Positions 8,766 to 56,923 of a DNA stretch of 64,000 nucleotides are shown in pieces (within the stretch, counting starts at the first letter, position 1; every line of letters starts with the position of its first letter). Source of the DNA: Octopus vulgaris (Eukaryota). The notes beneath the pieces are model-generated. The model worked only from the letters and a program-made list of their open reading frames with translations. It was not told the DNA's origin and ran no database searches. The position numbers and the translations under genes are program-made. The DNA is taken from assembly GCA_951406725.2 (NCBI GenBank), contig OX597840.1, forward strand, positions 14,136,001 to 14,200,000, written 5' to 3'.

Positions 8766-9011
8766 TGAAAACAGTAGAAAGGTTGGGTATCTTACCCTTA
8801 TATGATGTAAAAAGGTTGTCAGCAGACAGTCACAGGACTTGAACCAGCACCTCTGAGATACCAGCTGAGTACTCTACCAATGAAGCTAAGCTGCCCACTG
8901 ACAACAGTACTCAGCTGCTTTCTGGGAAGTGTGGGTTCAAGTCGTGTGGTGTCAACTGACAACTTATTCCGTCATTTAAGGGTAAAATATCCATTCTTCC
9001 TCCTGTTTTCA
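8766..9011. mobile_element. Diverged inverted pair of a short tRNA-derived element
   Basis: Arms 8766-8873 and 8906-9011; minus strand 8825-8897 has tRNA-like A box (tagcttcattgg) and B box (ggttcaagtcc). Confidence 0.7.
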
Positions 9012-10660: not shown

Positions 10661-10665
<5 letters not shown>

Positions 10666-10848
10666 TTCAAAACAGTTTGATTCAAATTCGTTGGTTCTCT
10701 CGAGTTTAAAGCCAAAAAATGGCTGATGACTAGCATCATGCTTGAAACTCAAGAGTACCAACGAATTTGAATCAAACTGTTTTGATCCATACACATAACT
10801 CCCAATAAATTGGTTGGGTGCCCTTCTATTGTTTGTCCACTCACTCGT
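10661..10848 (+). mobile_element. PLE pseudo-LTR fold-back with hammerhead at 10720-10760 (family H2)
   Basis: 47-bp arms 10661-10707 and 10745-10791; tgg CTGATGA ct agca tca tgct t GAAAC tc aa ga GTA cca; second copy at 50636-50764. Confidence 0.8.
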
Positions 10849-10886
10849 GTATATATATATATATATATATAGACTATATATATGTT

Positions 10887-11647: not shown

Positions 11648-11988
11648 AATTGCAGCGTGGAAGGTGTTTATAAGCCGTTTAATAAACACACAAAAACCGT
11701 TAGATTCACTTCAACATTTAAATTTAATTTGCCAAAATATTTTCGTCGCTTTGAGATTGTGATCTGTTCACTGACAAAATTCTGTGCTGTATCTGAGAAA
11801 GTAACTGTTAGTTCATCTAACTAACTGTTACGAAAATATTTTGGCAAATTAAATTTAAATGTTGAAGTGAAACTAACGGTTTTTGTGTGTTTATTAAATG
11901 GCTTATAAATACCTTCCACGCTGCAATTGTTTTCATTCCAGCACACGAGCTCAGATCAGGTCACTTGCTATGCAAGTACATCTACGTA
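11648..11988. mobile_element. PLE-like fold-back element (99-bp arms) with variant hammerhead candidate
   Basis: Arms 11648-11746 and 11830-11928 with 3 mismatches, flanked by (TA)n; minus-strand motif at 11728-11778. Confidence 0.75.
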
Positions 11989-12047
11989 ATATATATATAT
12001 GTGTGTGTGTAAATAAATACATCATATATATGTATATAAATAAATAT

Positions 12048-48320: not shown

Positions 48321-49813
48321 GTTTATGGCAATAGACTTCTATCTTCTGACAGAGTTGACAAAGATTCATCCTCTTGTTATTAGAAAGCCAGATCCTGCCT
48401 GTCTGCAACAATATCTTTGATGTCTCTGACACATTTCTTCCTATATTCTCAACGTTTCAAAGAAGTTCTTTGTCAACCTGAAGCAATAAAATTCTTTTAA
48501 AAACTCAGAAAAGGTTAATCCTTTTCAAGTTGTAGAGGAGTAATGTGTCTACTACTACAATGCCTGCTATGGTGCAAGTTGGTACCAGGGTGGTGCCACT
48601 ACAACACTACGCAAAAGCCACCTCATTTCTCTGTTCTGCATTGTACGTGGAACAGAGAGAAAAGTTGACCACATGAAGAAAGTAGACTCTTATTTCCTTT
48701 CTGCATTGTTGTGGCTTTCATTCTTCTCCTTGCTCTAAAATAAGCTCTCCATTTGTACAGCACAAGGGTAGAATGGTTTCTTAATTTGGTGGTGGCTGTT
48801 TGGATGCTGCATGGGTAAATGGTTAAGACATTCACTTTGCAATTACAAAGTCCCAGGTTCAATCCCACTGCATAACATTTTGGACAAGTGTTTTTGACTA
48901 CAACCTTGGGTGAGTGAAATTGGATAAATGGATATTGTGTGGAAGCCTGTTGGATGAATTCTACCTGGAATTCAATCGCCTTGATTTGTCAGCGTTGCAA
49001 TGATTCTGTTTGAGAATTGTGTTAAGGAGACTTGTATCTATGGAATACTCAACCATTTACTTGTTAATTAGTTATTGTTTCCTTTCTTGTTGTTGCTGTT
49101 GTTGTTAACACTATTTAACCCCACATCACCCCCAAACCAAGCAAACTAATGATTAAATACATCATGTCTTGTCTTTTTGTGTATCTTGAGACATCTTTGT
49201 AACCAATGCATCTGACTGCTATTTCTCAAAGGTAAACCAGTCACGTCCAGGCTCCCATGTTATTTCATTCATGTTGTTGTTGTTGCTATTGTTGTTAATG
49301 ATATTTAATCTCAGCTCAGCGTTAAGTCAGTGGTCCTGTCATTACAACCATGACCACACCTCCTGTTTCTTTGATATCACCAATTTAGACATATTTTCAA
49401 TGTGTCATTTTATTTTTAAAGATGGTTCTGTGTCATTAAAGAAATTAAGCTGCTATTTCTAGCAACGCAAACAACCCTATAGAGGTCTCCTTGTCGCTAA
49501 ATTTTTGAGTAAGCCGTGGTTAAATTAATTATGTAATTACACACTTCACTTTTTGATGATTCTTTAATTTACACCCAAATTCCCCCGATACATTTTAATG
49601 TAATCTACACCACGGCAGTCTAACTCATCTTTCCTCTCTCTTCCCTTTTTAAAATGGCGGTGCCCCAGCATGGCCACAGCTCATGAGCTGAAACTAGAAT
49701 CAATCAATCATACACACTCAATACACATGCAAAGATCATGCTTATACAGAATAAAGTAAATACACATGCCCATCCATCCATCTACCCACATTTGCATATA
49801 TACATTCACATAT

Positions 49814-49846
<33 letters not shown>

Positions 49847-49848
<2 letters not shown>

Positions 49849-50365
49849 TCAACAATATAAGGAATGGCCATAATAGGACATTCGAGTCACTAGAAAGAGC
49901 AGCCAAACTCAAACTGCTAATAATTGTAATTCTGAAATTGAAAGAGAAATAAAAACGTTTACCCCTTTCATCTCTGAAATTTTGAAAATTTAGAGCATAT
50001 AGACTGGAGGCTTCCTTACCATCGCCTCGTGGATATATACTCGTCCTAGGCTTCTCCGCTGACGAGGCACGCCAGTTGTAAATAAATTTAATTTAATTTA
50101 ATTAATTTGTTTACCAAAGTTTGCCGAAACTATGCATAGTCCAGAGATGAAAGGGGTAAACGTTTTTATTTCTCTTTCAATTTCAGAATTACAATTATTA
50201 GCGGTTTGAGTTTGGCTGCTCTTTCTAGTGAGTCGAATGTCCTATTATGGCCATTCCTTATATTGTTGAATGTATATTATGTAGTCTTTGACTATCTTTT
50301 CTTTCTCGCTAGATTGCTGGTAGCGGAGAATTCTTTCTAGAATTTTTTGCTACCCTTATATTTAT
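49847..50365 (+). mobile_element. PLE pseudo-LTR fold-back with 130-bp arms enclosing a hammerhead
   Basis: Arms 49847-49976 and 50142-50271 with 2 mismatches; (TA)n on both sides. Confidence 0.85.
50053..50147 (+). ncRNA. Type I hammerhead ribozyme, intact core
   Basis: tctccg CTGACGA ggca...tgcc GAAAC tat gc ata GTC^cagaga; palindromic stem III actatgcatagt; stem I has one mismatch. Confidence 0.85.
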
Positions 50366-50635
50366 TATATATATATATATATTATAAATCTGAAATGCGA
50401 AAAATTTGTTTGTCTGGTTTTGGCGGGTTTAATGGCACTACATCCCGTCGGATTCACTCCAAAATGTACAGGGACATGTAAAAAGAGGCGAGGATGTTAG
50501 TGAGCTAGGTTAGAAATCCCTATCTCTGAAACACCAGCATTAATCTGTGACATCATGTGGTCTTTCTTGACCAGTTACAGGCTAACTTCCAGTAATAAAC
50601 AGTGGCTTTCTCCTATTGACATCTCATTCTAATTC

Positions 50636-50764
50636 CAATGGCTGAAGACTAGCATCACATTTGAAACTTAAAGTACCAGGAATTTGAATCAAACTGTTTG
50701 CTCTATGCATGTAACTCATAATAAATGTGCTGAGTGCCCTTCTTTCATTTGTCCGCTCACTCGT
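50636..50764 (+). mobile_element. PLE pseudo-LTR family H2 with hammerhead at 50639-50678
   Basis: tgg CTGAAGA ctagcatcacattt GAAAC tt a aa GTA cca; stem II decayed; homolog of 10720-10848. Confidence 0.7.
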
Positions 50765-52831: not shown

Positions 52832-53113
52832 GCTTTCCATATGTCTTAACATTTTTTATTGTTATATATATATTTTTTTCCTTTTTAATGGTGTGAATGT
52901 GTATGTGTGTGAGCATATGTATATATATGTGTTTACATATGTACATATATGTATATGCAGGAGTGTGAATGTATGCCTATATATATATATATAGAGAGAG
53001 AGAAATTCGGGGTGAGTACTTGATAATTATAAGCACCTGTGTATACCGTTTGGTGGTGTAGGTGGTGGAGTAAATTGATCAAAATAAAGTAAAAACATGA
53101 TGCGAAGGATTCA

Positions 53114-53191
53114 GCGGTACATATGTTTCGGGCTTTTATTAGACAGATTTATAACAATGCATAATGTATGTCTGTGGCCTTCTTCAGCCGC
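53114..53191 (-). ncRNA. Type I hammerhead ribozyme, intact core
   Basis: gcgg CTGAAGA aggc...gccc GAAAC atat GTA^ccgc; palindromic stem III acatatgt. Confidence 0.8.
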
Positions 53192-55074
53192 GCACAACAG
53201 CTTCCACAAGGACATGTGTTACATCAAAAATTCTTGGTTGGGGATGCAAATCCTCTCATTCGCGTACGACATAATGCGGCAGCAGCATAGAATTGAAGCA
53301 TCCATCTCTTTCTTCTCTCAATGTAGAATGAGGAAAATTGGATGTTGAGGTAATGTAAATAAATAAATACATATATAGAGGTGAAGATGGAGGGGCGAGA
53401 GTTCGGGACGAGGGATAAAAAATGTATAAAAAGTGTAAGTATAGAATAATATAAAAATAATATAAAAATGTAGAGGATAAAGATATAAAGAGTTATAAGG
53501 AGATGAAAAGGGGGTATAAAGAAATATAAAGAAATATAAATAAATGTAAAGGCATAAGGTTATAAAGTAAAAATAGAAATAGAAATAAAAGTAAAAAAAC
53601 CTGATACAAACATGATAAAAGTGTAAAAGAATGTAAAGATAAGGGATGTATGGAGGTTACGGACCAAGCATGGTGGTCAGGAGATTGATAAAATTTAGTT
53701 GTAGAATTGTCAGTAAATCAACAGTTTCGTCTGGGGACCTAATGTGTTGTAAATCAGAGCTGATGAGCATTTAATCTGGTTCCTTGAATTAAATGGACTT
53801 CTAGTACATACATATCATCATGGATACATACACCCACATACACGCGTACATATACGCCTCCAAGCCTATAAGCATACACACGCACTCGCGTGTAAACATG
53901 TACATAAACACACACGCACGCTCGTACACACACATACATACAACAGAATATCCGCATGTATACACAGACACTATACGCGTACACACTCACATGTACATAC
54001 GCGCGCCTCTCCCTACATACACACACGTATATGCCCACGCCTCTAGGTCTAGGTATAAGATATTAAAGGATGTGTATAAGAACGTATGTAAAGAATCCCG
54101 TACTCATGTCTATACGTGCACGCACACACGGCTGTGTGTCCGTATGTGCGTGCACATATACACTCATATACACACACAGAGACACACGCGCACATGGGTA
54201 TAGCTATAAGATATCGAAGTATGCATGTACATATATGCGCGTGCATATGTATGTATGCGTATACACACGTACGCGGACGCTCGTATAGTCAAAAAGTGGA
54301 TCCATAGGTAAGTAAATAAACATATATAGAGGTGTAAAGCGATAAGTTAGGGGTAAGAATGAGGGTAAGGGTAAAGATTAGAAATAAAAAATACAGTATA
54401 AAATAAGAAATACAATGTAATAGTTAGAAATGAAATATAAGAATTATAAAAATTATAAGAGTTAAGGTAAGGGATGAAAATAAAAATGAGAATAAATGGA
54501 AGTAGAATAAAAGTAAAAATAAAATTAAAAATAAAAATAAATGGAAGTAGGATAAAAGTAAAAATAAAAGTAAAAATAAAATAAAATAAGATAAAAATAT
54601 AATTTGGTAAATTTTAACATGAGATGAAGGTGGTTGAAATTTAGAGGTGTGTGTTAAACGTAGGGGCGGGCGGGGGGAACTGGAAATTGGAAGGGTGGGA
54701 AGTGGAGTTTGGCGGTGTGCGTTCAACATCCAAGTTAGAAATGTGAAAGGGTATAGATATAGGGAATTAAAGAGACTATATAGGGAGGATATGGGTGTAG
54801 GAGAAGAAATATTTAGGGAAAAGAAGTCATATATGGGAGACAAAATTTGTATATATAGGAGGAAAATGCAGGGAACCGTATATGCATATACACACACCCA
54901 CACACACACACACACACACACGCACATGTATATATATATATATGTACACATACGTACACGTATGTGCACACACATACACACACACACACACATACACATA
55001 TACACGCACATATAGGAAAGTGGGATGTGCTGGAGCCGACAGGTTGCACCGGGTGGGAGGAAATTGCATGGGGG

Positions 55075-56318
55075 AGTTGGTATAAGACCTAAGCTTTTGT
55101 AGTATTTGAAAGTATTAATAAGTTTATGTATACAGGATGGTTTGAACTCTGACCTTTTGTTAATAAGATTGTGTTTGTCTTTGAATTTCAAGATGTTCAG
55201 GAGTTCTACACAACATAGTTGGCATCCTGCTCTATTATTTAAATAAGGTGCAGCTGATCCGATGATGGACCATCTAAGTTTGAAGCCTATGCATTTGTCT
55301 TTTAATTCCCAAATTCTTTTAGAGAGGGAGGTGCTGTTAGCCTTATGTCTGTGTCTCAGCGAGGACCGGTGGTTGTAGTATCTGGATTTCCAGGAGGTTG
55401 AGCAACCAATATAGGTGAGTGTGTTAAACTGAGTACTCACCTCACATGAGTATATTACGTTTTTCGCCCTACATGCGCCCTGCAGCGGGCACTCTGATGC
55501 ACATCTGCAGTTGCATTGCATTGCATTATTCGGTCGTGTACTGCTAATCCCAGGCGGAGGTGTTGCAATACGAGTGGGGGCGTTGGTATCCTCCTGGTTG
55601 TTGATGGGTGTAGTATTTCCTCTGTTGTGTTGGCGGGTGTTATTACTAACTGTTTGGGTAGTATGGCTGCCAGTCTGGTTATATTGTCTACTGTCTAGAT
55701 GAGGGGGTTCTGTTGGTCGCTATGGTTTGCTCTTGATCTAGCTGTTCTAATATTAATATAGTTATGTTTAGCTATGAGGCAGCTCATGTTGGGCAGGGTA
55801 GAGTAGGAAATCCTAATAGTTTTGTTGGAGAAGATACTTCTATACTTGTGGGTGGGTGGGAAGTTGTTGGAAATTATAGAGAATATTCTCTTACATAACT
55901 TACCCCTAACTGCTAAGTTGAAAGGTATGTTGAACCATATATATTTGCGTAATCTACTATTATCCCTTCTATTTCTCCTAATAGGATCTATATTGCTCTC
56001 GTCGGGAGGGTTACTATTGTGTGCTATTCTATTAGTTCGCCTATTTCCTATACGTTGTTTGGAGTTTAAATTAGAATTATCGCTAGTGTGAGTTGAGTGC
56101 TGAGTTCGATTATAATTGGGAGTCTTATGGCCGACGGGCGCTCCCGGGTGGTCTACATATGATATTCTCTGGTTATACCCGGCACTATAGAGAGCCTGGT
56201 TGTAGTGTTGTGCATGATTATTGAAAATTTCTCTATTAGAGGATAGTTTTGTCAGTCTGTCTGAGATGGCTTGGACCGTGGTGCTAATTATACAGGGTGG
56301 ATGGTTGGAAGAGGTATG

Positions 56319-56321
<3 letters not shown>
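55075..56321 (-). pseudogene. PLE polyprotein fragment: RT thumb, linker, Cys-rich motif and GIY-YIG endonuclease; one frameshift near 55703-55707
   Basis: YIHTSSNHPP...RLTKLSSN...YNQALYSAGY...IWFNIPFN...ISYSTLPN, then CNCRCASECPLQGAC...NVIY...TYIG...RYYNH...LSKRIWELK...CQLCCVE...LINKRSE...CIH; the two open frames overlap at 55698-55719. Confidence 0.92.
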
Positions 56322-56360
<39 letters not shown>

Positions 56361-56410
56361 CAAGCATACACCTATGTCTATAGGAGGATGAAGCTGTCTG
56401 CACATATGTG

Positions 56411-56496
<86 letters not shown>

Positions 56497-56923
56497 CATG
56501 TGTGTGTGTGGATATGTGTGTATGTGTGAGTACGTACATGCACATATGTGTTTGTGTGTGTATGTGCATGTACATATACATGCTTGTGTGAGTGTGTATG
56601 TATGTAGATTTTATGAACGCAGGAAGTGTTTATGTCTATGTATTGTGATAATATGGTTGTGTGTATTTTTTATCTTTTTTCTTTTTTTCTTTTACTACCT
56701 ATTAGAGAGTAACTTCCCTTTTATTCAACAGTTTATTATGGCATCTATTGCCATTAATAGCCAAGGAGAATGCACTGTAGCTCTTAGCTCCAGCATTTGA
56801 AACTCTGAGTACTATTATAACTTACTGATTATCCTAACTTATATATATATACTTCCCTAGTTACCTAAGTCTGAGGTTTCATTCTTCTGTTATCACTTAT
56901 TATTATTATTATTATTATTATAT

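Follow-up and report, generated by a model that had tools for sequence, protein, structure and literature searches.

Non-LTR retrozymes and Penelope-like elements are the described systems closest to the locus analyzed here. Retrozymes have been derived from Penelope-like repeats (bioRxiv 10.64898/2026.07.22.740005), and processing of retrozyme RNA in vivo has already been published (PMC7229834). No breakpoint analysis was found in the accessible passages of either source (PMC7229834; bioRxiv 10.64898/2026.07.22.740005). The role of the hammerhead in Penelope-like elements has been described as unclear (PMC8557442), and cleavage and circular templates have been proposed without in vivo evidence (PMC4209133). 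Work on a purified Anolis Penelope-like protein, for which a dimer is predicted, showed cutting and extension of both strands, with starts at two internal sites. Hammerhead cleavage proved dispensable in this in vitro system, and the RNA-seq reads reported in the accessible text neither begin nor end at the hammerhead (PMC11167929). In the R2 retrotransposon, the 5' junctions are defined by a ribozyme (PMC3774820).

The locus in question lies in a stretch of 64,000 nt from Octopus vulgaris, hereafter the window. Here a TA microsatellite carries a head-to-head insertion of a 470-nt repeat with a hammerhead. Elements of this kind, and inverted arrangements of them, are already known. What drew attention is that one arm ends exactly at the predicted cleavage site. 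The original prediction took this arm for a cDNA run-off at the 5' end of a self-cleaved RNA, and saw in it a clue to how inverted pseudo-LTRs form. Positions are numbered such that +1 is 50142 and 0 is C17.

Methods

The unbiased sample comprised 100 listed of 162 matches. Two further samples were enriched for ends near the site by anchored patterns with filter letters upstream of the site. Set 1 was anchored at +16..+37 (80 of 80 matches, the first 100 of 300, and 23 of 23). Set 2 was anchored near +39..+56 and was drawn from all 172 matches with a non-family letter at the filter, of which the copies lacking the set 1 anchor were kept. Breakpoints were called by eye and verified against fetched loci for set 1 and for every +1 case. 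Automated calls were wrong at hairpin junctions (L122, L130, L133) and in copies with indels, and were corrected by eye. Copies intact except for substitutions or small indels were excluded. Segmental duplicates were counted once (six matches on C29, two on C15), with the exception of L186 and L192, which have a common junction and were both counted, at +11. The ambiguous L120 was left out of the +1 count. Since breakpoints are overdispersed, the Poisson P values given below are too small, and rank is the fairer guide. Arm pairing was studied on 120 simple head-to-head pairs, 88 of them with two canonical 3' ends; this sample is enriched in ends close to the site.

Results

The index locus is composed of the following parts.

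49810 to 49846, no strand: (TA)n microsatellite, left flank and target, read from the sequence
49847 to 49976, minus strand: inverted arm of the untailed type, element positions +130 to +1, 5' end at the predicted cut
49977 to 50367, plus strand: direct 5'-truncated copy of the tailed type, about -165 to +226, running through the cut site
50053 to 50147, plus strand: type I hammerhead
50053 to 50058 with 50142 to 50147, plus strand: hammerhead stem I, with a C·A mismatch at 50057
50059 to 50065, plus strand: hammerhead core
50066 to 50069 with 50122 to 50125, plus strand: hammerhead stem II, with a long AU-rich extension
50126 to 50129, 50129 to 50140 and 50141, plus strand: hammerhead GAAA, palindromic stem III and C17
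50141 to 50142, plus strand: predicted scissile bond after GUC, from the hammerhead consensus
50144 to 50184, plus strand: G-U-rich hairpin +3..+43 immediately downstream of the cut, from folding
50319 to 50354, plus strand: 16-bp G-U-containing hairpin within the tail, from folding
50368 to 50383, no strand: (TA)n microsatellite, right flank, read from the sequence

The core motifs lie where they had been placed (CTGACGA at 50059-50065, GAAAC at 50126-50130, GTC at 50139-50141), and the hammerhead consensus places the scissile bond after GUC. The segments 49847-49976 and 50142-50271 pair at 128 of 130 positions; the two differences are a mismatch (49886/50232) and a G·T pair (49915/50203). 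Complementarity indeed ends at 49976/50142, the first base past the predicted cut, and 49977 is unpaired. The description of a right arm starting at 50142 needs revision: pairing does begin there, but this segment is no separate piece and belongs to the direct copy 49977-50367, which crosses the site uncut. The +1 end at this locus is that of the left arm only. At both differing positions the rare base is also the left arm's (1 of 240 and 9 of 209 matches).

The repeat unit has a period of 470 nt, a GC content of 34%, below the 45% that bounds non-LTR retrozymes, and no ATG-initiated ORF longer than 69 aa on either strand. Unit length is 470 nt in copy L019 and 459 nt in L012, both above the published retrozyme range of about 170-400 nt, which is descriptive. 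Exact matches to one 22-base word (80 + 300) indicate at least 380 copies in the 2.8-Gb genome. The copies have their 3' ends at about +130 or +227, and 306 of 328 canonical 3' ends adjoin at least three TA units. Both strands are represented in 43 of 82 insertions of the unbiased sample. Segments longer than one unit account for 52 of 389, one of which (L115) contains two cores, and no long tandem array was found among the loci examined. No dataset recorded as RNA was listed among those containing the unit. Pieces of it are also found in contigs from four runs presumed to be RNA; such contigs cannot give ends, strand or level.

These features match those of a non-LTR retrozyme or non-autonomous Penelope-like element, and on this basis we would assign the repeat to that class. 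The unit lacks an ORF of reverse transcriptase plus GIY-YIG, the mark of an autonomous Penelope-like element, and has no similarity to a 781-aa RT/GIY-YIG element of the same genome. No autonomous partner sharing terminal sequence was found among 30 GIY-YIG loci and 10 full-length copies of one family (150 of 6136 candidates scored). The broken ORF P0001 of the window matched nothing in Pfam and did not significantly match the 781-aa protein.

Of 115 complete copies, 105 retain an intact hammerhead core. In these copies stem I shows compensatory pairs (C-G in 86, T-A in 19), as does stem II (72 versus 9). Stem I of 6-8 bp, stem II of 4 bp and a palindromic stem III are those of canonical metazoan type I hammerheads. 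The C·A mismatch at 50057 is private to the index copy (1 of 68 matched copies) and probably arose after insertion. Adopting the hammerhead fold costs 7.0 kcal/mol above the minimum free energy in the index copy, compared with 1.0 kcal/mol in L019. Free folding of 50040-50160 did not return the hammerhead (z -0.84), and the Rfam hammerhead models gave no match at gathering score anywhere in the window. The second hairpin noted originally, at 50319-50354, is confirmed, with 16 bp and -20.9 kcal/mol (z -6.1); none of 200 shuffles did as well. The hairpin at 50144-50184 reaches -10.9 kcal/mol (z -3.0) on the plus strand and -3.7 kcal/mol (z -0.6) on the minus strand; both G-U-rich hairpins fold better on the ribozyme strand. 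The hairpin at +3..+43 competes with stem I and overlaps the zone of dense 5' ends.

A histogram of breakpoints over the family was the proposed test of the run-off idea. It returned a one-base excess at +1, but the ends are spread over the whole unit and no peak dominates. In the unbiased sample 5' ends range from +95 to -532, and 2 of 57 at-risk copies (2 of the 100 listed matches) end at +1. Between +14 and -12, with the index copy excluded, 14 of 97 ends called by eye fall at +1. The highest peak in this interval is +9 with 18 ends, followed downstream of +1 by +10 (8), +8 and +7 (7 each), +2 (4) and +3 (1); positions 0, -1 and -2 are empty. The excess at +1 has P 1e-5 over a uniform distribution and P 0.0008 over the mean of +14..+2, and +1 ranks second of 27 positions and about third of 51. 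Set 2 alone, which is disjoint and lacks the index copy, places 8 of 44 ends at +1 (rank 1 of 27). For set 1 alone the figure is 6 of 53 (rank 3; P 0.10 against a downstream mean of 3.15).

Stricter counting weakens the statistics. Removal of four jumps and three cases made ambiguous by microhomology leaves 7 ends at +1, to be compared with a downstream mean of 4.8 (P 0.21) and with a mean of 1 at the six neighboring positions. A single ascertainment without the index copy gives 10 ends at +1 versus 3.35 per base over +38..+2 (P 0.002), or 6 by the strict count (P 0.09). About 2% of the copies long enough to reach the site end at it (7 of about 337), and about 98% read through.

The 15 cases at +1, index copy included, consist of nine joins to an inverted partner (two with TG microhomology at the stem III palindrome), two joins to flanking DNA (one ambiguous) and four same-orientation jumps. 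The junctions have differing partners. Arm type among +1 ends is 12:3 as opposed to 48:47, with P 0.049 (0.08 without the index copy); this comparison is post hoc and carries no weight here. An automated microhomology caller run on 104 junctions found no clear difference between groups; it was noisy, misplaced the index junction and put only three junctions at +1.

Some of these junctions have features of their own. The four jumps (L154, L272, L274, L105) all start precisely at +1; they land at unit positions 255, 334, 390 and 456. L274 resumes at the core CUG beside stem I, as if the enzyme had left the 3' cleavage product for the 5' one. L255 and L275, which belong to different subfamilies, have an identical junction at the stem III palindrome that connects a +1 arm to a -8 arm via TG.

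Among the 88 head-to-head pairs with two canonical 3' ends, 85 combine a tailed arm (+227) with an untailed one (+130) (e.g. L033, L095, L105). In 50 of these 85, neither arm is contained in the other, which means that the arm was not copied from the partner's cDNA. Self-templated fold-back was considered as a general mechanism and is excluded for these 50 non-nested pairs. Over 86 pairs, the mean divergence between partner arms is 4.1%; the nearest copy differs by 3.2% and a typical other copy by 7.6%. The partner arms come from the same source, for which one molecule and one master gene are indistinguishable. This pairing of tailed with untailed arms is possibly a stronger mechanistic clue than the spike at +1.

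Other hammerhead-bearing repeats provide a partial comparison. The family represented at window position 53187 (minus strand) yielded 56 matches with 44 terminal ends: four at +1, two at 0, four at -1 and one in +4..+2. TA microhomology hides the true end of those at -1. Beside the anchor, at +9..+5, there are 26 of the 44 ends, and +1 does not exceed the overall mean (P 0.23). The local shape around the cut is the same as in the index family, a weak repeat of that result. In the family at 10723 (also at 50642; 100 of 102 matches), 3 of about 24 ends are at +1 (P 0.11) and there is no upstream depletion. One earlier count of this family was dominated by a composite subfamily with a fixed junction.

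Several further repeats were observed. Two copies of a hammerhead-like repeat with a 3-bp stem I lie at 10665-10850 and 50620-50760 of the window; the former includes a fold-back that breaks about 16 bases upstream of its predicted cut. An abundant inverted repeat family with tailed and untailed ends (11648-11990; L026, L080, L178) has a hammerhead-like three-stem layout. Its 5' core is not CUGANGA, and a variant or dead ribozyme is possible. On the minus strand, 53000-56670 holds a 5'-truncated, frameshifted Penelope-like element, followed by the canonical type I hammerhead at 53187. A CxC-x4-C-like linker and a GIY-YIG-like stretch can be discerned by eye in this element, which has no Pfam match and which we take to be Neptune-like. 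Elsewhere in the genome, L321-L330 (e.g. L329:481-5272) represent a young autonomous element of 4.8 kb. Its 781-aa ORF for reverse transcriptase plus GIY-YIG is intact in 10 of 10 copies, which are mostly 97-99% identical and have TA-repeat ends, an 80-nt terminal repeat and an apparent upstream ORF. No canonical hammerhead was found in the 10 copies fetched. Finally, a tRNA-like match at 8824-8895 on the minus strand (Rfam RF00005, 37.3 bits) is probably the head of a tRNA-derived SINE.

Discussion

We consider run-off on self-cleaved RNA, as a minor route, the best reading of the spike at +1, with a probability of roughly 0.65, because a reverse transcriptase stalled at stem III should leave its ends at 0 or -1. 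This part of the original prediction stands in reduced form: the spike is there, also in the subset without the index copy, but few copies carry it.

The reading most worth setting against it, although we regard it as unlikely, invokes RNA structure. Reverse transcriptase would stall on the +3..+43 hairpin and on the hammerhead helices of uncut RNA, ends would heap up at the 3' edge of the ribozyme, and +1 would be one hot spot among several. The distribution of ends has much of this character: density is 3.35 per base over +38..+2 and 1.0 upstream, +3 is the 5' edge of the hairpin, +9 and +17 equal or exceed +1, and many ends also lie near the 50319-50354 hairpin. From one side of the site to the other, end counts fall from 80 in 14 bases to 17 in 13, but this fall is confounded because it coincides with the edge of the +3..+43 hairpin, and set 1 ends rise again at -18..-28 (12-13). 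What speaks against stalling is the finer pattern. At the two positions where a stem III stall should leave ends there are none, as opposed to 14 at +1; a trough at +5..+3 precedes the spike; and a T run and a palindrome centre draw calls together at +9 and +17, but not at +1.

Chance is a still less probable explanation. Breakpoints are overdispersed, so that +1 could be high by luck and the index copy one random truncation; the rank of +1, the strict counts, which are not significant against the downstream mean, the negative 10723 family and the two +1 ends among the 100 listed unbiased matches are all compatible with this. However, the site was named beforehand, and the excess recurs in the disjoint subset, where it ranks first, and locally in the 53187 family. 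Coincidence is also unlikely for the index copy alone, given a background of 5' ends just downstream of about 0.6-0.7% per base; this case was picked post hoc, and the family test carries more weight.

The strongest version of the idea, that inverted arms arise generally by self-cleavage run-off, is very improbable and largely refuted by the spread of ends: of the 43 inverted insertions in the unbiased sample two have a +1 arm and 41 lack one, arm 5' ends range from +89 to -402, the fold-backs at 10661 and 11648 break elsewhere, as the original prediction had itself cautioned, and hammerhead-less Naiads are described as making inverted copies too (PMC8557442), even if cut RNA, with cDNAs trimmed before joining, could also account for the +12..+2 shoulder and for the step at the site. 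With most cDNAs reading through and +9 higher than +1, the claim that run-off is the route to inverted pseudo-LTRs is not supported. Cleavage likely fixes the ends of a few arms and is not the cause of inversion.

Run-off as a minor route can be accommodated in the following scheme. A Penelope-type enzyme would prime two cDNAs, one from each end of the cut target, starting at about +227 (with the tail) on one end and at about +130 on the other. Each cDNA would stop independently, and the 3' ends would then be joined, with microhomology slight or absent. As a rule the template may be an uncut multimer or a religated circle, because about 98% of cDNAs cross the site with the sequence intact. A minority of templates would start at +1, and cDNAs made on these would be joined to a partner arm or to the flank, or would jump to an upstream position of the unit. 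Of the two cDNAs at the index locus, one continued through the site and one ended on it, so different units or different molecules were used. This insertion probably arose from two cDNAs made from the ends of the cut target by such an enzyme, the inverted arm ending where reverse transcriptase reached the 5' terminus of a self-cleaved RNA.

More tentatively, the two arms could be products of one coordinated, two-ended reaction on a single multimeric transcript, primed at the tail and about 95 nt upstream, with germ-line hammerhead cleavage supplying template 5' ends for run-off or jump. If this rather doubtful model were true, the genome would hold a base-exact record of ribozyme cutting that is readable for any hammerhead-bearing family, and the +12..+2 shoulder would consist of trimmed run-offs. 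The excess at +1, if genuine, would mean that cleaved linear RNA sometimes serves as a germ-line template, and the read-through of 98% provides a figure for uncut or circular templates. The near-obligate pairing of non-nested tailed and untailed arms limits models of how inverted copies form. Neither count was found in the literature covered, which consisted of main texts with subscription journals thinly represented.

In L1 twin priming, two target primers yield an inverted segment joined 5' to 5'. The Octopus arms differ from this in that they overlap in sequence and would involve two fixed priming sites and a repeat or circle as template. Like non-LTR retrozymes, the repeat is short, non-coding and low in GC and carries a canonical type I hammerhead (PMC7229834; bioRxiv 10.64898/2026.07.22.740005), has copies of more than unit length and co-occurs with Penelope-like elements (PMC7229834). 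Unlike the retrozymes described there, which span 170-400 nt (PMC7229834), it measures 470 nt and has a long AU-rich stem II, and its copies are mostly dispersed, 5'-truncated and inverted, with two cores in one of 389 segments. Partial tandems, an adjacent inverted 5'-truncated copy, a tail at one end, microsatellite targeting and two preferred 3' ends are shared with reported Penelope-like insertions, from which the repeat differs by the absence of an ORF and by a tail of about 95 nt rather than 30-40 nt (PMC8557442, PMC4209133, PMC11167929). The excess of genomic ends at +1 also contrasts with Anolis, for which no RNA ends at the site are reported in the accessible text (PMC11167929). In R2, the ribozyme is HDV-like and as a rule defines full-length elements (PMC3774820), whereas in Octopus a hammerhead lies inside a repeating unit and would define about 2% of ends.
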